From Candidatus Magasanikiibacteriota bacterium (lineage in GTDB: Bacteria; Patescibacteriota; Patescibacteriia; Magasanikbacterales; UBA922): a stretch of DNA of 64,000 nucleotides. The DNA lies in the NCBI GenBank assembly GCA_041674805.1, contig JBAYVA010000002.1, forward strand, positions 83,234-147,233. Direction: 5' to 3'. The notes under the pieces are model-generated. The model was not told where the DNA came from. It searched no databases and saw nothing but the letters and a program-made list of their open reading frames with translations. Of the stretch, positions 330 to 43,466 are shown in pieces. Every line of letters begins with the position of its first letter. The stretch's first letter is position 1. The translations under genes and the position numbers were made by a program.

Positions 330-1604
330 TTAAATTTTTTTAAAAAAATCTATAAAAATATACCAAGAATATTTCACCAAACTCGGTACATTGTGTAATT
401 TCAAAATCAAAGAGGATAGACCCTTTCCTTTTTCTTTACTATCACAAAATTGAAACAAAAAGCCTTCTTTTTCTTTGGCAATTATCTTATACATTTGTCT
501 AAAGGTACGATTTGTTTTCATTCTATCCCAAACAAATCTATAAAAAACTTGTTTTTTATAATAAGTAATTATATTATGATAATTATTCATATTTTTTAAA
601 AAACTAGCAAAAACTTTATCATCACTCTTATCAAAATAATCTACTAATAACTTAGCAGATTCAATACCTGAAATAATAGAACCTTTGATACCATCTGCAG
701 CAAAAGCTCCACAAAAACCAGCTGCATCACCTATCAATAAAATTTGTGATTTATAAATATTTTTAAGAGGTCCTCCAATTGGTATCTTACTACCATAAAC
801 ACCATAAGACGCATCAACAGAATTATCTATATTTATAATATTTTTTTTCAAAAGTACTTGTATAAATTTTTTTAACAATTCTTTGGCATTTTTATTCTCT
901 TTCATTTTTTTGGCAAGACCAATACGAAAAGCTTTTTTATCATCTATTATAGTAGAAGATAGCCAACCACCATAACCAAGTGAAAAATCACCAAACCAAA
1001 AATGATAAATTGTCTCTTCTGGATTTGGCCCTAATAAAATATTACCAAAATAAACTTCTTCTATACCAAATAGAAATTTTTTATTTTTTTCTAAAGAATT
1101 TTGTAAAGCAACCTTCGAGCTACCACCATCAGCTCCTATCAAAAATTTTGTTTTTACATTTATTTTATTACCTTTTTGCAAAAAATTGACTGTCATTTTT
1201 TTATTTTCTTCATCGATTTTACTATTATCTATATAAATAGTTTCTGTCCACAAAGTAACATTTTCTGATAAATTATTAGCCATTTCTTGTATCAATTTTT
1301 TTGTATCTGTTTGATAAATCCAAGGATCTTCCTTACTAGAAAAAAAATGTTCTTCAAAATCAGTAGTAACAACACCTATTGTTGTTATTTTATTAGTAAT
1401 ATAATTATCTATTTCAAAAAAACTATCAAATATTTGTCTAGTATGTTCTGTTATCAAACCTGTAGATTCTACAGTAAAACCAACTGATGGTTTAGCTTCT
1501 ACTATCAAAACTTTTATCTTAGAATCTTTAGGTAAATTACGAACAAAAGATAAACCAGAAAAGCTAGCTCCAACTACGACGATATCAAAATATAAATCAT
1601 TCAT
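330..1604 (-). CDS. FAD-dependent oxidoreductase of the geranylgeranyl-reductase family
   Basis: It has the N-terminal dinucleotide-binding motif DIVVVGASFSGLSF, a second GADGGSS motif and the LIGDAAG motif typical of FAD-dependent reductases. Length is 424 aa. Confidence 0.6.
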   Translation of the reverse strand: MNDLYFDIVVVGASFSGLSFVRNLPKDSKIKVLIVEAKPSVGFTVESTGLITEHTRQIFDSFFEIDNYITNKITTIGVVTTDFEEHFFSSKEDPWIYQTDTKKLIQEMANNLSENVTLWTETIYIDNSKIDEENKKMTVNFLQKGNKINVKTKFLIGADGGSSKVALQNSLEKNKKFLFGIEEVYFGNILLGPNPEETIYHFWFGDFSLGYGGWLSSTIIDDKKAFRIGLAKKMKENKNAKELLKKFIQVLLKKNIINIDNSVDASYGVYGSKIPIGGPLKNIYKSQILLIGDAAGFCGAFAADGIKGSIISGIESAKLLVDYFDKSDDKVFASFLKNMNNYHNIITYYKKQVFYRFVWDRMKTNRTFRQMYKIIAKEKEGFLFQFCDSKEKGKGLSSLILKLHNVPSLVKYSWYIFIDFFKKI

Positions 1605-2194: not shown

Positions 2195-3892
2195 CTACTT
2201 TAAAAAGCTAATTCCTGAGGTAAATCTTAGTTGCATTTCATCTTTTTGACTTTTACGAAGATCAAAAAATGTCTTATTTGTCAAAGGTTTATTTTGAATA
2301 ATATCAGAAATCCACTGTCCTCCCAACAAGTGTGTCATCATCACATAATTGGCTCCAGCTTCATATAAATCATCCAAATAAGTATTATGATAAAGATTAC
2401 CAATAATAATAACTTTTTTATTTATTTTTCTAATGTGTTTGAACAAAATGATTTGATCATCAGGATTAGGTATTGTACAAACTATCATTTCTGCTTTTTC
2501 CAAAGGCAAACTTTCCAAAAATTCTATATCACTAACATCCCCAAAAAATGCCGGAATATGTCTATTTTTCAAAACTTTTACTGCTTCAGGATTATAATCC
2601 ACTACCGCATATTTCATATTTTTTTCAGCAAAACCTTCACACACTTTCCAACCAATACGATGATAACCAAAAACCCAATTAGTAAAAATTTCTTCATTTT
2701 TTTCTATTTGTTTGTGCTTATCATGTCCGAACAAATTGAAGACTGGACGCAAAAATTCAAAAATCTTCTCACTATAAGTAATAAGATAAGAAGATACAAT
2801 AATAGTTGTCAAAGCGACAATAGTAAAAATTTCTAATTCTTTGCCAACCACATGTCCCAAATTTCTTCCAACAATCAAAAGCACAAAACCAAATTCACTG
2901 ACCTGAGCCGCTGTCACACCAGCCAAAAAACTATTTCTTCTTGTGAATTTTTGTGAACGAAAAGCCCAATACAAAACAAAAGGATTACCAATCAAAATAA
3001 ATAAAGATAAAATCAAACCATTTATCCAAATTCCATCCAAATTAGTAAGTGACATTTCACTACCCAAAATAATAAAAAATATCACAATAAAAAAATCACG
3101 CAAAGGTTTGATACGACTAGAAATTTCTGATTGAAAAGGCGAAGAACCAAGAGTAAGACCAGCTACTATAGCACCAATTTCCAAAGAAAAACCCAACCAA
3201 TATAACAAACTAGAAATACCAAAACACCAAGTCAAAGTAAAAATAAAAAGAAATTCACCAGACTTCGCCACACTTTGTAAAATTTTTGGAATAATATATC
3301 TCGCTGTCAGTCCAACAAATCCCAACAAAATAAATATCTTACCAACTAATTCTCCTACTTCTACCCAAATATTATTTCCTTGACCTAATGATGTCACCAT
3401 CATCATAATAAAAATAGCCACAATATCTTGTACTACCATGAGACCAATAGTATATCTACCATAAACACTTTCAGTGTCTTTTTTGTCTGCCAATAATTTT
3501 ACAATAATAATAGTACTAGAGAAAGTCAAAGCCAAAGCCAAATAAATAGCTGACGATGCTGAAAATTTCATGGCAAGAAGTATCAAAAAGCCAAGAGAAG
3601 CTGTAAATATTACTTGGGCCATACCTGTAATGACCGCAACTTTACCAATACTCTTGATATGTTGAATATTGAGACTTAAACCTACCACAAACAAAAGCAA
3701 CACAACACCAAATTCAGCCAAAGCATCAAAAGTATGTCCACCTTCTTGCAACAAATTCAAAAACATCGGACCAGCAATAATGCCAGCAATCAGATAAGAA
3801 ATTAAAAGTGGTTGTTTTAACAAACGCAATACAAAAGCTACAGAAACAGTAATACCAAGCAAAGCAGAAATTTGAAGAAAAATATTATCCAT
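2195..3892 (-). CDS. CPA2-family monovalent cation:proton antiporter (KefB-like) with a C-terminal RCK/TrkA-N domain
   Basis: 565 aa with about 12 predicted TM helices, consistent with a Na_H exchanger fold. The C-terminal part has a Rossmann-like RCK segment (KYAVVDYNPEAVKVL...IIIGNLY). Confidence 0.65.
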   Translation of the reverse strand: MDNIFLQISALLGITVSVAFVLRLLKQPLLISYLIAGIIAGPMFLNLLQEGGHTFDALAEFGVVLLLFVVGLSLNIQHIKSIGKVAVITGMAQVIFTASLGFLILLAMKFSASSAIYLALALTFSSTIIIVKLLADKKDTESVYGRYTIGLMVVQDIVAIFIMMMVTSLGQGNNIWVEVGELVGKIFILLGFVGLTARYIIPKILQSVAKSGEFLFIFTLTWCFGISSLLYWLGFSLEIGAIVAGLTLGSSPFQSEISSRIKPLRDFFIVIFFIILGSEMSLTNLDGIWINGLILSLFILIGNPFVLYWAFRSQKFTRRNSFLAGVTAAQVSEFGFVLLIVGRNLGHVVGKELEIFTIVALTTIIVSSYLITYSEKIFEFLRPVFNLFGHDKHKQIEKNEEIFTNWVFGYHRIGWKVCEGFAEKNMKYAVVDYNPEAVKVLKNRHIPAFFGDVSDIEFLESLPLEKAEMIVCTIPNPDDQIILFKHIRKINKKVIIIGNLYHNTYLDDLYEAGANYVMMTHLLGGQWISDIIQNKPLTNKTFFDLRKSQKDEMQLRFTSGISFLK

Positions 3893-3953: not shown

Positions 3954-6900
3954 TTATTTAGAAATAAATTTTTTAATCAATTTTTTTATTTTTGAAAAAA
4001 TATTTTCTCCATTACTTTTCAAAAAAAGTCCAAACAAAATAGCAGTAAAACCACCAGCTGTAGCTGTTAAATATTTTTCAACAATATCCGCGTTGTCTTG
4101 CTCTTTGGCTTTTTCTTTTTTTGTTACCAAATCTTCACTAACACCTGTTTTAATAATATCATTTTGATCACGTGGCAACAATTGATATTCTGTTTTTGTT
4201 TGATGAAGTAGTCCAGTAATACTTACTAAATTACCTTCTTCAAATATATCTTTTTTTATACCAGCTCCTCTCTTAAAATATACTTTTATTTCCTCAGTTC
4301 CATCGTCTACATACATATAAGAACTTTTTATTTCTGTAATTTCACCACTTACCAAAATAAGACTACCTTCATATTGTTCCCCCACATCTTCTAATTCCAA
4401 GACTCTACCAATTGGTAATTCACTATGTCCCAATTTTTTTATATCATTTTTTTCTTTTAATTTTATTCTAGTTTCACCAGAAGTTTCTGTAATTTCTCCC
4501 ATAACTTCTATTTTGTCTCCCCTTTTTAAATCTGGAAAATCTTTACTAAACATATAAATTTGTACACCAGCATTTTCAGAAACTATATAAAAAATTTGTG
4601 TACCCATTATACCTGGTTCTACTGCTACTGTACCTGTCACACTAATCATATCACCCAAATCTTCATCACGTATTTTTTCTAAACTAGTGTTTATAACTGC
4701 TTTCACTGAATTACTCTTACTTTTTACTATTTTAACGGATTTTACTTCTGTTATTTCTTCTACAAAATTTACCTCACCAGGGCTAATAATTTTATTCCAA
4801 ATCCAGTTACCTTCACTATTACGAACATAAGAGGCTCCTTCTATTACATCATCAAATCTTACTTCCATTATAATAGTTCCATCAGGATACAAAAGACGCA
4901 CAGAATCACTAGTGTTATTCAAAGCCAACTTTGTATCTTGGCGACCAAAGACTTTATATTCTTTAGCTTTTATCAAAGTATTAGCTCCTACAGTATAAGC
5001 TTTTGATCCACCTTCTTCATCATCAATTTTTAAACCCGAAATATCAACATCTTCTTCTGTAGGATTGTGAATTTCAATAAATTCAGTAGTATCTGAACCT
5101 ACTGGATTTGGCAAAATCTCTGAAATGTACAAAACAGATATATCACTTGTTCCAGCATAACCACCCACAAAATCTTGAGACAATTTTACACTTAAAACAA
5201 CATCCTTTTTACTTTCATTACTACCATCACTTACTGTCAAAGATACAGTATAAACTCCTTGTTGCAAAAATTTATGTTCTACACTCGCGCCATCTTCATC
5301 AGTCCCATCAGCAAAATCCCAATGAAATTTTAAATCTTTTCCTTCTGGACTAACAGTATCAGAAGCATCAAATTTCACCCATTCATTTACAGCTACTTCG
5401 GTATCTACATCAAGTGCAATAATTGGTGCTGCACTTTTACCTTCTACTATGTTTTTGCTTCCAGCAGTAATTTTACTACTCCATACCCAAGTAGCATCAT
5501 CTTGCCTCACATAACTAAAAGAATCACTAGCACTACCAGGATAACTTACACTATTTACGATTGCCCCATTTGGAGAAAATAATTTTACTTCATCTCCTCC
5601 TGTATTATTTAGAGCTATTTGTGTCATAGTTCTTTTGAAAACAATGAATTCATTTGCTTTCAATACACCTTGTTTTATTGTATATTTTTTCTTACTAGAA
5701 TCAGATAATTGCCAATCTTTCAAATCAATAGTTTCTGTACCTTTATTCCAAATTTCAATAAACTCATCATCACTATCACTACCTGGAGGATTTGGATAAA
5801 TTTCATTCAAAACTATGTTTGTTTGCAAAGAAAAAATTTCTTGTTTTTCCAAATCTTCAGCTTTTAAAGATAAAACATTTTTTTGTCCCCTAGTAATAGT
5901 ATCTGTAATTATAAAATCATAATAATCATTATCAGCATCTTGTCCATCTGTTTTTCTTATCAACGAATATGGATCACTTGCCACAGCAGCATTATCATAA
6001 GTATTACCATCATCCCAATTGCCATAAGTAACTTTATCTATTTCTTTTTTACTAGGATCTAATAATAACAAAATATCACCAGCATTATTGAGACTTCCTT
6101 TTGGTTCCTCAATTACAAAAAAACCTTTAGGCAAAATAGTCCCTGTCAAAATCGTAATTGTTTCACTACCATCTTCCAAAGACCAATCATTTAAATCAAT
6201 AATTTCTGAAGTGTTGTTATATATTTCTACGAATTCTTTTTCTCCATCACTAGGATCAGAAACCAACTCGTTTATGACCAAATCTCGTGCATTATAATTT
6301 TTTGTTGTTACTTCAGAACTAGAAGACGAACCTCCACCAGAACTAGAAACTGGAATATTTTTAATAATATTGACTTCACCTGGCGTTGGTTCTGTGGTAA
6401 TAGAAAAATCATTTTTATTATTTCCCGTGTTTTGACCATCCACGATTCTCGCCACAGAATAAGGATCACTGTGTGCAGGAGCGTTGTCTGAAATATCTTC
6501 ATCAAAAAAATCTATCCAATCACCAAAACGCACTGTGTCTATCAAATTACCAGAATTATCATACAAAAAAATACCATCACCATCATTGTTCAATTTACTA
6601 GACAAAATATTTACTCGCAAAAAACTTTTTGTTTCCAAAATATTATCCAAAACCAAAATTTTTTTTGTGCTACTACTACTTTTGTCACCTTCGTGCACTT
6701 CCCAATCTTTCAAATCAATAGTAGAGGTAGAATTATTATATATTTCTACCCATTCATTTTCACCAGCCACAGGATCACTTACAAATTCATTAATAACTAT
6801 TTCATAATTAGGAATAGTATTTGTCGTGGTAGTAGTACTTTCAAAATTTTCTACTATACTAAAGTTAAAAATGTCACTTGCAAAATCATTTTTATCATCT

Positions 6901-19915: not shown

Positions 19916-21283
19916 TTAATGATTATGACCTGTATGATCTTCGTGATCTTCTTCTGCCATGGCATGTCCGTGAGAATGTTCTTCATGCTTATGTCTTTCA
20001 CCTTCTACTAATTTATCTGCCAAAAAGTTTACAACTTTTTTATTTAATAGCATGTTGTGAATAGAATCAAGTACTTCTGGTTTTTTCAAATTTTCTAGAT
20101 ACTCAGCAGTTTCTTTGTAGTATTCACGTAGATTTTTTACTTCAGCATCTAATTCATCTTTGGAAATAGTTAGACTGTGTGCTAGAGCTACTTCACGAGA
20201 AAGCAATGAAGCTTTGGCTCTATCAGTTGCTTTGTTTCTAAAATCTTCTTGTAATTCTTTTTCATTTTTTTTGATGTCTTGTAAATATTGTTCAATTGTT
20301 ACACCATGTTTTTCTAAATCATGTTGTAATTCATAAAACATTTTTTTGAGTTCAGCTTCTACTAACACTTCTGGAATTTCTTCAAATTTAGTTTCTTTGA
20401 TCAATGTTTCAAACATTTCTATTTCAGCTATTTCATCAGCTTTGTGTTCAGCTTCGTGAGTCAAATTTTCTTTGATTAGGTCTTTTAATTTGTCTAAACT
20501 TTCTTGTCCTAATACTTTGGCAAAAGCATCGTCTGCTTTTGGTATTTCTCTACCAAAAACTTCTTTTACTTTTACTTTGAATTTGCCAGTTTTACCAGCT
20601 AATTGTGCACTATAATAATTTTTTGGAAAAGGTAAATCAAATTCTTTTTCATCACCTTTTTCTAAACCAATCAAAGCATCATTGAAACCAGGGATATGTT
20701 GATGATCTTCTGATAAATAAACATTGTAATCAATAGCCTGTCCACCTTCTACTGGTACTCCATCCAAAAACAAATTCATATCTATAACGATCTTGTCTTC
20801 TTTTGTTGCTTTGCCTTTTTTGATTACTTCTTTTGCTTGCATTTTTAATAAATTATCAATAGTTTCATTTACTGATTGATCATTTACTTCTTTGACTGTT
20901 CTTTTTATTTTGATTGATTCTAATTTTGGTAATTCAACTTTTGGTAACAAAGCTACTTTGGCAGAATAAACTAAATCATTAGCAGGTGCCATTTTTTGAA
21001 TATTGATATCTGGCATGCCAATAGTATTTAATTTTTCAGCTGTTACAGTTTGATAAAAACTGTCTTGGATAATATCTTCCAAAGCTTCTTGCAAAAGTTT
21101 CATTTCACCTACTTCTTGTTTGACCATTTCAAAAGGAGCTTTGCCTTTGCGGAAACCTCTAATAGCTACACGATTTGAAATAGTAGTAGCTGCTTTTTCT
21201 AAATGTTTTTGATAATCTTTTGGACTAACTGTAATAGTAAGTTCAATTTGTGATTTTTCTAATTTTTCTATTTTGTGTTCCAT
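19916..21283 (-). CDS. tig: Trigger factor (ribosome-associated PPIase chaperone) with an unusual His-rich C-terminal tail
   Basis: N-terminal ribosome-binding motif GFRKGKAP and an FKBP-like middle domain. The C-terminus reads HKHEEHSHGHAMAEEDHEDHTGHNH. Confidence 0.85.
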   Translation of the reverse strand: MEHKIEKLEKSQIELTITVSPKDYQKHLEKAATTISNRVAIRGFRKGKAPFEMVKQEVGEMKLLQEALEDIIQDSFYQTVTAEKLNTIGMPDINIQKMAPANDLVYSAKVALLPKVELPKLESIKIKRTVKEVNDQSVNETIDNLLKMQAKEVIKKGKATKEDKIVIDMNLFLDGVPVEGGQAIDYNVYLSEDHQHIPGFNDALIGLEKGDEKEFDLPFPKNYYSAQLAGKTGKFKVKVKEVFGREIPKADDAFAKVLGQESLDKLKDLIKENLTHEAEHKADEIAEIEMFETLIKETKFEEIPEVLVEAELKKMFYELQHDLEKHGVTIEQYLQDIKKNEKELQEDFRNKATDRAKASLLSREVALAHSLTISKDELDAEVKNLREYYKETAEYLENLKKPEVLDSIHNMLLNKKVVNFLADKLVEGERHKHEEHSHGHAMAEEDHEDHTGHNH

Positions 21284-21298
21284 ACTTTATTTTTTAAA

Positions 21299-21337
21299 AC
21301 GCGGAATTACGCGGACTTTTACGCGGATAGACGCGGA
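21299..21337. promoter_or_regulatory. Four direct ACGCGGA repeats (spacings 10/12/10) in the tig leader, between the tig promoter and its start codon
   Basis: The sequence reads ACGCGGAATTACGCGGACTTTTACGCGGATAGACGCGGAAAG. The 20-mer TTACGCGGATAGACGCGGAA recurs at 43447-43466 upstream of thyA. Confidence 0.55.
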
Positions 21338-21381
21338 AAGTGACCAAAATAATGCGTTTATTTTTGATTAAAAAGTGGCTA

Positions 21382-21410
21382 TAATATAGCTTGTTTTGCT
21401 TGAAATGTCA
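21382..21410 (-). promoter_or_regulatory. Sigma70-like promoter for tig (minus strand)
   Basis: On the minus strand: TTGACA - 17 nt - TATATT. Confidence 0.6.
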
Positions 21411-21415
21411 ACTGT

Positions 21416-21459
21416 TGGCAAGCAGAGTAAGCAAAGTAAGCAGAATAGGCATAATAAGT
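21416..21459. repeat. Iteron block of four roughly 9-bp TNTGCYTAY units abutting the -35 of both the tig promoter and the divergent cassette promoter. A second copy lies at 24970-25012 upstream of polA.
   Basis: Read on the minus strand: AACTTATTATGCCTATTCTGCTTACTTTGCTTACTCTGCTTGCC. Compare AACTTATTCTGCCTATTTTGCTTACTTTGCTTATTTTGCTTGC at 24970. Confidence 0.6.
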
Positions 21460-21460
21460 T

Positions 21461-21490
21461 TTTGACGAGGATATTTTTTGGTGTTATTGT
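21461..21490 (+). promoter_or_regulatory. Sigma70-like promoter driving the GC-rich mini-cassette
   Basis: TTGACG - 17/18 nt - TATTGT. Confidence 0.5.
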
Positions 21491-21508
21491 TTGTTGCGGA
21501 GGTGAGAA

Positions 21509-21646
21509 ATGAAAGAATTTCTTGAGACCCTCATCGGCATTCTCGCTTCCCTTTTTTGGGGAGCGGTGTTCGCCGTTTTCCTCTTTGATGAGGAAGCGGC
21601 GGCGACCTTCCTGCGAGGGGAGGTCAAATATGTCACGGGGGTTTGA
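21509..21646 (+). CDS. Small hydrophobic single-TM peptide (45 aa) inside the GC-rich cassette. It is below the ORF-track size cutoff.
   Basis: A GGAGGTGA Shine-Dalgarno lies 6 nt before the ATG. Hand translation gives MKEFLETLIGILASLFWGAVFAVFLFDEEAAATFLRGEVKYVTGV. Local GC is far above the genome background. Confidence 0.45.
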   Translation: MKEFLETLIGILASLFWGAVFAVFLFDEEAAATFLRGEVKYVTGV

Positions 21647-21689
21647 AAAGGAGGGCGGTCCGGGCGTACGTGCGCGGACCAAACTCATA

Positions 21690-21727
21690 AATTAAGACCG
21701 TTTTTCTTTATTGAAAGACGGTTTTTT
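21690..21727 (+). terminator. Intrinsic terminator/attenuator inside the cassette
   Basis: AGACCGT-(loop)-ACGGTTT followed by TTTTTTTT. Confidence 0.5.
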
Positions 21728-21784
21728 TTGACAGTTCATTTTTTTGTAGTAGTTTTTAAATATCTTCCACGGAAGGAGGTGGTT

Positions 21785-21976
21785 GTGGGTGGTGAGAGCC
21801 CCTTTCATACGCTGATCCAGTGTCCAAACTGTAGGCGTTATACGGACTCAAGAGAGTTCGAAACGCTGACAAAAGATGGGGGAGAGTACAAAAAGTGCCC
21901 ATATTGTGGGTGGTCACATCTTGTGTCTATGCCCTCGGCGTACTTTAAGTATAGGAGGGACGATGGAATTAATTAG
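21785..21976 (+). CDS. Zinc-ribbon mini-protein (about 63 aa, GTG start) in the GC-rich cassette
   Basis: An AAGGAGGTG Shine-Dalgarno sits just upstream. The sequence contains CPNCRRY...CPYCGW (CxxC-x25-CxxC). It lies in the same frame as track ORF 21728..21976, whose AT-rich 5' part overlaps the terminator. Confidence 0.45.
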   Translation: MGGESPFHTLIQCPNCRRYTDSREFETLTKDGGEYKKCPYCGWSHLVSMPSAYFKYRRDDGIN

Positions 21977-22065
21977 GTAAGGGGTGGGGAAGGTGGATGC
22001 GCGCGACTTCTACGAAAGTGGTTGTCGTGCGCGTTCGTTCAAATAAAAAATAAAATTTTAAAATT

Positions 22066-22099
22066 AAAAAAACACTCTCAAATTGAGAGTGTTTTTTAT
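22066..22099. terminator. Bidirectional terminator (3' end of the H+-PPase gene and right edge of the cassette)
   Basis: ACACTCTCA-AAT-TGAGAGTGT with flanking A/T runs. Confidence 0.6.
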
Positions 22100-22119
22100 T
22101 TCAGTTTAAATCAATGCTT

Positions 22120-24108
22120 TTATTTTAACAAACCAATTATGAGCAAAGCCACAATGTTAGCCACTTTGATCATAGGATTGATTGCAGGGCCAGCTGTGTC
22201 CTTGTAAGGGTCACCTACAGTGTCACCAGTGACAGCAGCTTGATGTGCAAAACTTCCTTTACCACCGTGATTGCCTTCTTCAATATATTTTTTTGCATTG
22301 TCCCAAGCACCACCACCAGTAGTCATAGAAATTGCGACGAATAGACCGGTGATAATAGTACCAACAAGCAAACCACCAAGAGCAGCAGCACCCAAGAAAT
22401 AACCAACTAAGATTGGAGCTACAACAGGGATAACTGCTGGTAAAATCATTTGACCAATAGCACCTTTAGTTACTATATCTACTGTTTTGGCATAGTCAGG
22501 TTTGGCTTGACCTTCCATAATACCTTTGATTTCACGGAATTGTCTGCGAACTTCTTCTACTACACTACCAGCTACTTTACCTACTGATTGCATTAGTAAT
22601 GAACCAAATAAGTAAGGAAGCAAACCACCAATAAATAAACCTGTCAAAACTTTTGGATCATCAATTCTAAATACTGTACTGATACCTTCTGCATCAAGTT
22701 TGTGTGTGAAATCTGCAAATAATACTAGAGCAGCTAGAGCAGCTGAAGCGATAGCATAACCTTTGGTAACAGCTTTTGTGGTGTTGCCAACAGCATCTAG
22801 CGGATCTGTAACATTTCTAACATCTTCTCCAAGTTCTGCCATTTCGGCGATACCACCAGCATTGTCAGTGATAGGTCCATAAGCGTCGATTGCTACGACA
22901 ATACCAGTAAGAGAAAGCATAGACATAGCAGCGATAGCTACTCCGTAAAGTCCCATGAAGTGATAAGCTACAAGCATACCGGCGACAATAGCCAATACTG
23001 GCAAAGCAGTTGATTTCATGGATACTGCTAGACCTGTGATGACATTGGTACCATGACCTGTTTCACTAGATTTTGCAATTTGTTTTACAGGAGCATATTT
23101 GGTTGAAGTATAATATTCAGTAATCCAAACCATAGCACCAGTAAGTACGATACCAACTACAGTTGTCCAGAAAACATCAGCAGTAGTCGCATTTAAATCA
23201 GCAGCGTAGTGTCTACTCAAGAAAAAGAAACCAATTATTGAGAAAAGGCCAGACATTATTAGACCTTTGTACAAAGCTCCCATGATGTTGTTCTTTTTGC
23301 CAAGTCTGATGAAGAAACTTCCAAAGATTGAAGCAATAATAGAAATAGCTCCAAGCATAAGAGGAAACATAATACCTGCAGTAGTACCAACAAAAGTAAG
23401 TCCACCAAGTACCATCGCAGCGACAGCTGTTACTGCATAAGTTTCAAACAAGTCAGCAGCCATACCAGCACAGTCACCGACGTTGTCACCGACGTTGTCA
23501 GCAATTACAGCTGGATTACGAGGATCATCTTCTGGAATACCTTTTTCTACTTTTCCAACTAAATCAGCTCCGACGTCAGCAGCTTTGGTAAAAATACCAC
23601 CACCGATACGAGCGAATATTGAGATAAGACTACCACCGAAAGCTAATCCAATAAGAGCATCTAGGTCTTTGGTCAATAAATAAAAACCAGCAACTCCCAA
23701 AAGTCCAAGACCAACTACGAGTAAACCAGTAACAGTACCACCTTTGACAGCTACATCTAAAGCAGCTTTTAAACCTTTTTTGGCAGCTTCAGTAGTACGA
23801 ACATTGGCTTTGACAGATACATTCATACCTACAAAACCAGCAATTCCAGAGAAAAGAGCTCCAACTAGGAAACCTAGTCCAGTCATCCAGCCTAAAGTTA
23901 GTCCAAGAACCAAGAAAACAAGGATAGCTACATAAGAAATAGTCTTATATTGGCGAGCCAAATAAGCTTTGGCACCTTCTTGGATAGCGCGAGCAATATT
24001 TTGCATGCGTTCTGATCCTGTAGGCTGTTTGTTTATCCATTGAATTAAAAAGATACCGTAACCAATCGCCAAAACGGCTGGTCCGATAAGCAGTAGTGTT
24101 GTTAGCAT
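22120..24108 (-). CDS. hppA: Membrane-bound proton/sodium-translocating pyrophosphatase
   Basis: 662 aa with about 16 TM helices. Conserved motifs [19 protein letters not shown] and [21 protein letters not shown]. Confidence 0.9.
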
Positions 24109-24253
24109 ACTCTACTTTATAAATTAAAAATAAATGAATTAATAGGTAGATTATAGGGAAAAAGGGTTGAAAAGTCAAGGGAACTTAGTCAAAAGTCTAT
24201 AAAGTTCGTAAAGTTGAAAGTCGTTTAAAAAACAAAAAATAGTCTTTTTAGGA

Positions 24254-24898
24254 CTATTTTTTAATTTGGATAAGTTTGGCTAGTTGTTTTTGGCTTATTT
24301 TCAATAGATCTTCTAGTTTCGTTTCTTTATTTTTCTGTAAATAATTTTTTACCAGGAAATAGCCTATTACTCTACCTATATATGCAGGTTTGCTTTTGGG
24401 ATTATGAAACCATTTGGCAGGGTTGTAATCTTTTAGCTTAAAAAATCTTTTATTTTTGTTTATCAGGTCTTCAACTTCATTTTTGTTTAATTCAAAATTT
24501 TCGGTTAGGGCGAATTTGGTAATTGTTTTTTCAAAGTTTAGGGCCACGCCGTGCAGTAATATTTCTTCTAATAGTGTCTTAGGAAAGCCAAATTTCTGGT
24601 AAATACTGAGTAAATAAAGATCATTAGAAACAGGGCGTCTGACGTATTGTTTGAGATATTTTTTGAATTTTTTGTGTTTGGTGTCAAAAGTAACAGCTAG
24701 TACATTGTCGTTTATTATTCTGGTTTCCACAGCGCTACCAACACGAGTTCCGTCCTCCATAACTAAAATATCAACATTCTTAGTGTCAAGATATTTGGAA
24801 ATTTGTTTCAATACCAAATCAAACTCTTTTTTTAGTCGGGTGTTATAGGGTTTTAGCAGAGGGTTAGCTTGGAGAATGTGGAGGTGGATGTTTTTCAT
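24254..24898 (-). CDS. Hypothetical basic protein (214 aa)
   Basis: ORF only. No motif I can name. Confidence 0.3.
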   Translation of the reverse strand: MKNIHLHILQANPLLKPYNTRLKKEFDLVLKQISKYLDTKNVDILVMEDGTRVGSAVETRIINDNVLAVTFDTKHKKFKKYLKQYVRRPVSNDLYLLSIYQKFGFPKTLLEEILLHGVALNFEKTITKFALTENFELNKNEVEDLINKNKRFFKLKDYNPAKWFHNPKSKPAYIGRVIGYFLVKNYLQKNKETKLEDLLKISQKQLAKLIQIKK

Positions 24899-25042
24899 AA
24901 ATATATAGATAAAGTAATTAAAGTATATCTCTTTGTCTTTGTCTAGTCAAAAGCTAATAATTTTAAGGTAACTTATTCTGCCTATTTTGCTTACTTTGCT
25001 TATTTTGCTTGCTATGTTACAATATACTGGATAATAAAAATT

Positions 25043-37888: not shown

Positions 37889-38455
37889 ATGAACAAAAAA
37901 ATAAAATCCTTACTTATTGGTGGTAATTTGTGGTATTTAGGTGAGGGCATGTTTGGTCCTTTGTTAGCTGTTTTTACTGAAAAAATTGGTGGTGATGTTC
38001 TTGATATAAGTTATGCTTGGTCGATTTATCTTTTAGTTATGGGTTTGCTAACAATGTTTGTTGGTAAGTTTTCTGATAAATCTGATAAAGCAAAAATAAT
38101 GGTATTTGGTTATGCTTTGAATGCTTTTTTTACCTTTGCTTATTTGTTTGTAGATTCATCTTTGAAACTTTTCGTTGTGCAGGCTGGTTTGGGTATATCA
38201 GCTTCTTTGGCTGCTCCAACTTGGTATTCATTGTATGCTAAGTATGAAGATAAAAATAAAGATGGTATGGAATGGGGTTTGGCAAGTGGTAGTTCGAATA
38301 TTATTACAGGTATTGCAATTTTAATTGGAGGTATTATTTTGAAATTTTATTCTTTTAATATTTTATTTTGTGTAATGGGTACTTTGCAGGTTGTGGCTAC
38401 TATTTATCAATTCCAAATTTTGAAAAAAAAGAAATTATTATTTTTTAAAAGATAG
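37889..38455 (+). CDS. Six-TM membrane protein resembling half of an MFS transporter, possibly a gene fragment
   Basis: 188 aa with about 6 TM helices and no partner half nearby. Confidence 0.35.
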   Translation: MNKKIKSLLIGGNLWYLGEGMFGPLLAVFTEKIGGDVLDISYAWSIYLLVMGLLTMFVGKFSDKSDKAKIMVFGYALNAFFTFAYLFVDSSLKLFVVQAGLGISASLAAPTWYSLYAKYEDKNKDGMEWGLASGSSNIITGIAILIGGIILKFYSFNILFCVMGTLQVVATIYQFQILKKKKLLFFKR

Positions 38456-43446: not shown

Positions 43447-43466
43447 ACGCGGATAGACGCGGAATT
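43447..43466. promoter_or_regulatory. TTACGCGGATAGACGCGGAA operator-like element in the thyA promoter, the second copy of the tig-leader motif
   Basis: Exact 20-nt identity with 21319-21338. It overlaps the TTGATA -35-like hexamer at 43440-43445. Confidence 0.5.

Follow-up and report, generated by a model that had tools for sequence, protein, structure and literature searches.

GC-rich, probable small-protein mini-genes between tig and the H+-PPase gene of a Candidatus Magasanikiibacteriota bacterium: a conserved, lineage-specific module beside an orphan ORF

The closest described counterparts of the locus reported here are the type I toxin mRNAs (Fst/RNAI, AapA1/IsoA1 and Hok/Sok), the small pump modulators (KdpF, AcrZ, MgtS, CydX and phospholamban/sarcolipin), the dual-function small RNAs (sRNAs) SR1/SR1P, SgrS/SgrT and RNAIII/hld, the phage 'morons' (PMC3594210) and the C4 zinc-ribbon proteins. 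Our locus lies on a 64,000-nt stretch of a Candidatus Magasanikiibacteriota genome (contig JBAYVA010000002.1, positions 83,234 to 147,233; hereafter the window, to which all coordinates refer), in the 835-nt spacer between the trigger factor gene tig (19916-21283, minus strand; Pfam E=1e-37) and the gene for a proton-pumping pyrophosphatase (H+-PPase; 22120-24108, minus strand; Pfam E=1e-271). The trigger factor encoded here is 100% identical to a protein from an NCBI metagenome-assembled genome assigned to Candidatus Magasanikbacteria, and the relatives used below bear the same name. Two small open reading frames (ORFs) occupy this spacer: ORF1, a 45-aa peptide gene within module 1 (21462-21729; predicted transcript ~235 nt), and ORF2, a 63-aa gene within module 2. 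Our best overall reading is that these are lineage-specific small-protein mini-genes, and we favor with moderate confidence the view that the region holds two independent, self-contained mini-genes instead of a single cassette. Module 1 represents a small-protein/RNA family that is new but belongs to a general kind already known.

To compare the spacer among relatives, loci were retrieved through trigger factor, through a DNA pattern of the module 1 3' element in metagenomes, and through contigs that encode Tig homologues of 76-80% identity. These comparisons revealed versions of module 1 in seven further genomes (L003, L004, L008, L011, L012, L018 and L019), and wherever a contig covers both flanks the module lies between tig and the H+-PPase gene and is oriented away from tig. 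A preliminary description of this DNA had regarded the region as one 0.6-kb cassette in which the two ORFs form a pair; that proposal does not survive the comparison, as seven other genomes have module 1 and none has the zinc-ribbon ORF. The sigma70-like promoter TTGACG-TATTGT of the same description is present with a 17-nt spacer (P1), and it is kept at the identical position in 8/8 loci in the form TTGACK-17-TATYKT, followed by a GGAGGTG Shine-Dalgarno (SD) sequence that is invariant in all eight and has an ATG 5-8 nt downstream. The remaining layout in the relatives consists of a 39-45-codon ORF, a purine run, a 9-10-bp stem-loop, CAAACTCA and a terminator. Tig identity among module 1 carriers is 76-80% and that of the module 1 peptides only 26-53%. 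Since module 1 occupies the same locus in genomes whose Tig is 76-80% identical, a recent foreign origin does not hold for it, and module 1 appears to be inherited vertically with its locus and to be lineage-specific. In the next clade out (Tig ~64%), the L015 spacer is only 138 nt long, with the H+-PPase gene present and no small ORF. A scan of metagenomes for the 3' element pattern recovered only the same three genome types plus L008, and a scan of IMG/VR gave zero matches.

ORF1 is maintained as a reading frame across these loci. Frame +1 is open in 8/8, with frame +2 interrupted in 8/8 and frame +3 in 6/8, and the probability that base composition alone would leave the frame open is 0.03-0.21 per sequence, or ~2e-6 across six lineages. 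The peptides (39-45 aa) can be aligned end to end, and all eight keep a hydrophobic stretch and an acidic hinge (variants DEE, EED, PES, PEE, ADE, VED and NEH), with a central Trp in 7/8 and a tail in which an F/L-L/I pair precedes charged residues, these being K/R in five peptides and E or D in two. A model made by AlphaFold2 (AF2) from the single sequence agrees with the 45-aa hydrophobic-helix peptide of the preliminary description, placing a helix at residues 2-25, a kink and a second helix at 28-43 with a mean predicted local distance difference test (pLDDT) of 83, such that the N-terminal helix is hydrophobic, the C-terminal one amphipathic and the hinge between them acidic. The maximum 19-residue Kyte-Doolittle value is 1.6-2.5 in 7/8 peptides and net charge runs from -3 to -7 (0 in L019). 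The ORF1 peptide is probably membrane-associated. Database relatives are scarce: Pfam and NCBIfam searches with all eight peptides at E<=10 gave chance matches only, PHROG, PADLOC and PDB profile searches gave no relative of the ORF1 peptide, and a peptide profile run against 5.8 billion proteins recovered just a single L003-type sequence, nearly identical (P0001).

In its size, its single hydrophobic helix and its position beside a membrane pump gene, module 1 resembles the pump modulators, and further small hydrophobic ORFs adjoin the H+-PPase gene in L007 and L017. Unlike those modulators, module 1 is convergent with the H+-PPase gene and would be a separate transcript outside its operon; L015 has the H+-PPase gene without the small ORF, and the module 1 peptide evolves much faster than the H+-PPase. 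H+-PPases are not known to have a small subunit.

The RNA of module 1 carries conserved structure in addition to the ORF. Compared with shuffled sequences, the whole region folds with z=-8.1 on the plus strand and z=-4.3 on the minus strand, the module 1 transcript with z=-7.9 and ORF1 alone with z=-5.5, its coding RNA forming a three-hairpin junction in the predicted fold. In the consensus structure of the eight sequences 89% of cells are paired, versus 31-55% with slid partners, and nine pairs have changed on both sides with a covariation score that 0/500 shuffles reached; these counts come from 7-8 related sequences and from structures derived from those same sequences, which lessens their weight. 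The two best-supported helices are hairpins, one inside the ORF at codons 24-29 (4/6 pairs compensatory) and the other the 3' untranslated region (3'-UTR) stem-loop (4/9 pairs compensatory; 90% of cells paired versus 14-46% when slid), the base of which varies among GGTCC/GGACC, GGTTC/GAACC and GGGGCC/GGCCCC, with pair 6 being G-C, A-U or A.C. The 3'-UTR element is the most conserved part of module 1, with the 3' UTR exceeding the ORF in 24/28 pairwise comparisons (for the window against L011, L003, L012 and L018, 0.76-0.90 versus 0.59-0.76). A covariance model of this element scored 59-68 bits with one copy per locus in the 189 kb searched, where the sole other plus-orientation candidate was a weak one in L003 module 2 (16 bits, E=0.15). 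The element is thus no dispersed repeat, being found strongly just once at each locus, and a multi-copy or mobile 3' element was rejected. Integron gene cassettes were likewise rejected, given a promoter for each module, the single-copy 3' element and no integrase-type Pfam among the genes called in the locus, as was a hidden ORF after the 3' AAGGAGG, for which the sequences offer no conserved start codon.

Several observations weigh against a maintained membrane peptide made from a structured message. The hydrophobicity of the L004 peptide (1.27) is under the usual transmembrane threshold and that of L012 is borderline, and D/E residues occur within the helices of several homologues. Differences in ORF1 fall about equally on the three codon positions (4/4/5 for the window versus L008 and 19/21/18 for the window versus L003), a pattern unlike ordinary purifying selection that fits RNA-level constraint or a near-neutral peptide. 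Strong folding of the ORF is restricted to the sub-lineage of the window, L008 and L011, with z values of -7.0 in L008, -5.3 in L011, -3.2 in L019, -2.6 in L003, -2.0 in L018, -1.6 in L012 and 0.0 in L004. In addition, the public record of the contig has zero called genes in the spacer, both ORFs having been missed.

The even substitution pattern leads to an alternative in which the functional product is the RNA itself, as a structured or dual-function sRNA whose working part would be the 3' stem-loop and the single-stranded CAAACUCAUAAA, with the ORF secondary or serving ribosome loading only. The conservation of the 3' UTR above the ORF would follow from such a role, as would the covariation in two hairpins and a third-position GC content (GC3) that is high in spite of vertical inheritance, and sRNA 3' modules typically show this order of a stem-loop, a single-stranded stretch and then a terminator. 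Module 1 is also similar to SR1/SR1P, SgrS/SgrT and RNAIII/hld as a structured RNA of ~230 nt with a 39-45-codon ORF and with 3' stem-loop, single-stranded stretch and terminator better conserved than that ORF; unlike those RNAs, it has no identified target or seed complementarity, its ORF fills most of the RNA, and it matches no RNA family. We consider this alternative quite unlikely, as ORF, SD and start codon are retained in 8/8 loci, L004 and L012 show little or no structure within the ORF, and the window contains 13 matches to the complement of CCAAACUCAUAA versus 12 expected, which is no enrichment. A known noncoding RNA, which the preliminary description had allowed for, did not emerge either: with the whole window scanned against Rfam 15, there was no match at gathering in 21200-22200, and at E<=10 the region gave only sub-threshold matches to the AT-rich terminator.

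The preliminary description had also compared the locus to a type-I-like toxin module, and part of this comparison stands, namely the resemblance in size, helix and folded mRNA. Type I toxin mRNAs are like module 1 in being short, independent transcripts that have a strong promoter and SD and encode a peptide of no more than 60 aa containing a single hydrophobic helix, in having a very stable fold with anti-SD-like tracts and a possible 5'-3' contact, and in coming from unannotated, lineage-restricted loci. Fst shares a further trait with the module 1 peptide, an acidic segment after the helix. If module 1 were a type I toxin-antitoxin system, the 45-aa peptide would be a membrane toxin held by its own mRNA fold and by an unrecognised antisense RNA, and a small, hydrophobic, fast-diverging peptide from an unannotated locus would suit this, together with a short autonomous transcript that is very strongly folded and CU-rich anti-SD-like tracts within ORF1. 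Pairing of GGAGG with the invariant CUC of the 3' UTR, predicted in L012, in L019 and by RNAalifold, can be compared with the aapA1 and hok mRNAs (PMC6733600, PMC5416894, PMC8594479) and recalls their long-distance interactions and metastable hairpins (PMC6733600, PMC5416894). SD sequestration is, however, inconsistent among the loci, with the SD predicted to be mostly unpaired in the window, L008 and L011 and GGAGG paired with the 3' CUC in the folds of L012 and L019. A consensus scan of the 8 loci, in a phylum whose promoters are uncharacterised, found no conserved sigma70-like promoter on the opposite strand and no antisense RNA gene, so that membership in a type I toxin family is not established, and there is no spare DNA in L004 and L011 that could encode an antitoxin separately. 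Net acidic peptides are atypical of such toxins, the locus is single-copy and syntenic, and we found no sequence homology, no match to toxin families of Pfam or NCBIfam and none in PADLOC. With no antisense support and an SD that is largely free in the sub-lineage of the window, we therefore retain the type I system as an unlikely rival.

Composition sets the region apart, as the preliminary description had emphasized in a sharp rise of GC from the tig promoter to the H+-PPase terminator. Mean GC of the window is 0.307, 200-nt windows reach 0.425-0.535 over 21400-21999 versus 0.27-0.34 in tig and upstream, and at a threshold of 120 nt and 0.47 the segment 21479-22053 (575 nt) is the longest GC island in the 64 kb, the remaining islands being tRNAs or intragenic. 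Codon usage is equally unlike that of the host, with a GC3 of 0.61 in ORF1 and 0.53 in ORF2 versus 0.16 in tig and 0.24 in the H+-PPase gene, and in the ORF1 homologues that were checked (L008, L003 and L004) GC3 is still high (0.46-0.61). Foreign origin, which had been argued from this contrast and set against the prospect of homologous cassettes with normal GC, divides accordingly: cassettes at the same locus were found, but their GC is also raised. For module 1 the proposal fails, given the same locus in seven relatives, and only for module 2 is a recent acquisition of DNA plausible. High GC of module 1 in all eight loci (0.39-0.56) points to RNA-level selection rather than to recent transfer, and a GC island in an AT-rich genome thus does not necessarily imply horizontal transfer.

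A broader version of foreign origin, in which the whole 0.6 kb would be recently acquired as a mobile-element or phage remnant, we consider improbable. Host values of GC and GC3 are far from those of the region, both ORFs are SD-led in an SD-poor genome, module 2 occurs in this genome only, and the locus carries a 60%-GC insertion in L003, all of which such an origin could explain. The modules also share with phage 'morons' (PMC3594210) a single ORF, an own promoter and terminator and a GC unlike that of the neighbours, and module 2 and its slot share presence and absence in otherwise collinear genomes. Unlike morons, the modules lie in a core chromosomal spacer instead of a prophage and lack phage homology, and module 1 is not sporadic, as 8 genomes have it at the same locus. 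The spacer is flanked by neither an integrase or transposase nor terminal repeats, its surroundings being tig, the H+-PPase gene, polA and dnaA-region core genes, and the rpmH-rnpA-yidD-dnaA cluster is only a few kb from it, which identifies the spacer as core chromosome. The mobile-element or phage remnant named in the preliminary description found no counterpart among phage, plasmid or IMG/VR sequences (blastn, tblastn and IMG/VR search), nor was there a PHROG match below E=3e-4. An assembly chimera or artefact, for which one could cite the abrupt composition change in a metagenome-assembled contig, is so improbable as to be nearly negligible: an independent ENA record of this contig (L001) has the 835-nt spacer without a single difference, separate assemblies from JGI, ENA, Logan and NCBI contain module 1 again, module 2 is bounded by a terminator and a promoter, and relatives continue on both flanks.

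Module 2 is an orphan in a variable slot. Neither DNA nor protein similarity to ORF2 was found in any related locus examined (tblastn included), a search of IMG/VR and a tblastn search of phage sequences gave no homologue, a word-indexed search of 5.8 billion proteins returned none, and an exhaustive HMMER search of 1.84 billion representatives gave six weak matches, all of them long proteins. The slot after module 1 contains a 95-aa ORF with similar promoter, SD and 3' end in L003, AT-rich 39-aa and 304-aa ORFs in L008, and an opposite-strand cassette of ~250 nt of GC-rich DNA with a 49-codon ORF in L012, and it is empty in L004, L011 and L019. As ORF2 is absent from every relative and slot contents differ, module 2 is no partner of module 1, and we interpret ORF2 as an orphan gene, real or very young, that occupies a slot of variable content and is unrelated in function to ORF1. 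The tig-PPase spacer can thus be seen as a hot spot for strain-specific small genes. The L012 cassette (~700-915, minus strand of that locus) combines its ORF with a strong GC hairpin (GGGCGGGCGCGCG...CGCGCCCGCC).

The CxxC...CxxC protein of about 63 aa in the preliminary description corresponds to ORF2, and a zinc-ribbon fold is plausible for it. Single-sequence AF2 modeling produced a beta-rich core of 5 strands over residues 10-48 (pLDDT 75-85), and the top Foldseek match was ZifS (probability 0.92, E=0.12), the others being small zinc-binding proteins and Rpb9/TFIIS-type ribbons at E of at least 0.12. With C4 zinc-ribbon proteins, such as the Thermus thermophilus protein ZifS (8yoz) and the Pfam Zn_ribbon families, ORF2 shares a pair of CPxC knuckles, separated by 21 residues, and the modeled beta-hairpins; unlike members of these families, it has no similar-sized homologue among 1.8 billion representatives, its Foldseek E is 0.12 and all its Pfam scores are below gathering. 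The fold is probably a C4 zinc ribbon. The doubts raised above extend to this module, as the best Pfam zinc-ribbon score for ORF2 is 19 bits and thus below gathering (cut-offs 27-29), ORF2 is known from a single sequence, and its putative promoter P2 has a weak -10 and was missed by the promoter scan. P2 resembles the promoter of L003 module 2, and ORF2 could also be transcribed by read-through of the module 1 terminator T1. Best PHROG matches were a family of unknown function (E=3.5e-4) and a Lar-like family (E=6e-3). Module 2 folds with z=-6.9 relative to shuffles. The micro-ORF suggested previously does exist (ATG 21997, 18 codons), but it lies nearly entirely inside a 14-bp hairpin and has no counterpart in relatives, and we therefore read it as RNA structure and not as a gene.

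The two mini-ORFs also stand out in how their translation would start. Among the ORFs of at least 120 aa in the window, 45/47 are without an SD-like motif near the first ATG (a tetramer or longer within 20 nt), and many have a TATAAT-like box 6-10 nt upstream of the start; the frequent box and the scarcity of SDs suggest SD-independent or leaderless initiation as the norm in this organism. By comparison, 5 of the 20 plus-strand GGAGG motifs of the 64 kb lie inside 460 nt of this region, and the two strong SD sites reported before, GGAGGTG at 21498 and AAGGAGGTG at 21773, are each 5-6 nt from a start codon. GGAGG followed at 4-10 nt by a start codon and at least 25 codons occurs five times in the window, in the two mini-ORFs, twice within long genes and once before a 38-codon ORF at 38327, which we take for a chance occurrence. 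As SD-led ORFs in an SD-poor genome, the mini-ORFs are therefore distinct by initiation signal as well as by composition, and module 1 carries a perfect SD where almost no long ORF has one.

Evaluating these lines of evidence together, we propose that a sigma70-type promoter would start the module 1 RNA just 5' of GGAGGTG, that the ribosome would then make a 39-45-residue peptide in which the acidic hinge joins a hydrophobic, transmembrane-like helix at the N terminus to an amphipathic one at the C terminus, and that the message would end with the conserved stem-loop and then the intrinsic terminator. The high GC of module 1 could be understood as a property of this RNA, a hairpin-packed message, in which the packing presumably stabilises the message and/or gates translation. 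We infer that the membrane, into which the peptide would insert or on which it would lie, is its site of action, perhaps through modulation of a membrane protein or through perturbation of the membrane itself, and the most likely mechanism is a small membrane-acting peptide produced from a stabilised or gated message. Module 2 would be a strain-specific addition between module 1 and the H+-PPase terminator, acquired or born recently.

A more speculative extension, which we think rather doubtful, is that this genus-level clade of Magasanikbacteria, with its scarce SDs, keeps a class of SD-led, GC-rich, hyper-structured mini-messages for small hydrophobic peptides around the H+-PPase, with module 1 as a proton-pump partner or an antisense-independent toxin-like peptide whose translation would be set by the mRNA fold and the 3' element. 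Proposed members are module 1, L003 module 2, the L007 cassette and the L017 ORF, and in module 1 the 3' SD-like run and stem-loop may compete for the ribosomal anti-SD or make a 5'-3' contact. The L007 cassette (~1330-1710, in an L003-type genome) is GC-rich, lies between the 214-aa ORF and the H+-PPase gene, and has a TTGACA promoter, GGGAGGGG before the ATG, a small ORF of ~62 aa in which two stretches are hydrophobic, and a GC hairpin terminator of its own. The L017 ORF (3071-3325, minus strand) is an unrelated, SD-led (GGAGG-7-ATG) ORF of 84 aa with two hydrophobic stretches in the same tig-PPase spacer, L017 belonging like L015 to the clade with ~64% Tig identity.

Small proteins are systematically overlooked in genomes of the candidate phyla radiation (CPR)/Patescibacteria, and neither ORF was called here. 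Module 1 is a testable, conserved and unannotated unit in which both RNA and peptide seem constrained. Should the peptide act on the membrane or the proton pump, it would be a lineage-specific regulator for organisms with minimal physiology; should the RNA be the active part, it would be a new structured RNA. Features of the two modules are collected in Table 1.

Table 1. Features of the spacer between tig and the H+-PPase gene, in window coordinates.
Feature	Position	Strand	Basis or remark
9-nt-unit repeat array (TAAGCARAR)	21418-21460	.	between tig promoter and P1
Promoter P1, TTGACG-17-TATTGT, TG upstream	21462-21490	+	promoter scan; same position in 8/8 loci
Shine-Dalgarno GGAGGTG	21498-21504	+	6 nt from ATG 21509; very 5' end of predicted transcript
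ORF1, 45 aa, MKEFLETLIGILASLFWGAVFAVFLFDEEAAATFLRGEVKYVTGV	21509-21646	+	ORF list
3'-UTR element: AAGGAGG 21648-21654, stem-loop GGTCCGGGCG/TGCGCGGACC 21657-21680, then CAAACTCATAAATTAA	21646-21695	+	
Intrinsic terminator T1: 13-bp stem, 6-nt loop, U8	21694-21729	+	present in every fold
Putative promoter P2: TTGACA, 16 nt, TAGTTT	21728-21755	+	by eye; overlaps T1 U-run
Shine-Dalgarno AAGGAGGTG	21773-21781	+	5 nt from GTG 21785
ORF2, 63 aa from GTG, CPNC-x21-CPYC	21785-21976	+	ORF list
GC-rich 14-bp stem-loop, module 2 3' UTR	21999-22033	+	folds; holds micro-ORF
Bidirectional intrinsic terminator, common to module 2 and the convergent H+-PPase gene	22067-22097	.	terminator scan

The internal hairpin with a U-run that had been noticed earlier is T1; the scarcity of G-C pairs in its stem explains why it escaped the consensus terminator scan. 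The bidirectional terminator beside the H+-PPase gene is also kept in L008, L011, L012 and L019.

Two kinds of repeat lie near the promoters of this neighbourhood. The TAAGCARAR units upstream of P1 form one arm of a 43-nt inverted repeat (21418-21460 and 24970-25012; 91% complementary) that encloses module 1, module 2, the H+-PPase gene and a 214-aa ORF, and each arm is located just upstream of a divergent promoter pair, tig/P1 in one case and polA/214-aa ORF in the other. The array also occurs in L004, on the polA side only, and in L019/L020 on the P1 side. A mobile segment bounded by the inverted repeat (21418-25012) was rejected as the primary reading, given that the arms are directly upstream of the tig and polA promoters and that polA-PPase-tig synteny reaches the 64%-Tig clade; the arrays are probably a shared upstream regulatory array rather than mobile-element ends. 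The second repeat, the heptamer ACGCGGA, has 8 occurrences in the window versus 0.57 expected, with four copies in tandem ~10-12 nt apart in the ~90-nt tig leader (21299-21337), two directly upstream of thyA (43447-43463) that share the same 19-mer TACGCGGATAGACGCGGAA, and others at 4087 and 32548. These repeats are partly kept upstream of tig in L019, L011, L003 and L004, and from their arrangement they are a candidate operator or RNA-binding array.

The 214-aa ORF (24254-24898) is DUF2268/GldB-like, and L004 has only a C-terminal remnant of it (1077-1382) beside its TAAGCARAR array. In L003, a genome labelled ~33% GC, a 264-aa ORF of ~60% GC (2807-3601, plus strand) is inserted ahead of module 1, on the far side of which is the tig promoter; Pfam, PHROG and PADLOC gave no match to it, gene callers took an opposite-strand 271-aa frame in its place, and it is flanked by a direct repeat, TGTCAATGWWCACGAATCTTAAC, at ~2690-2715 and 3715-3740.

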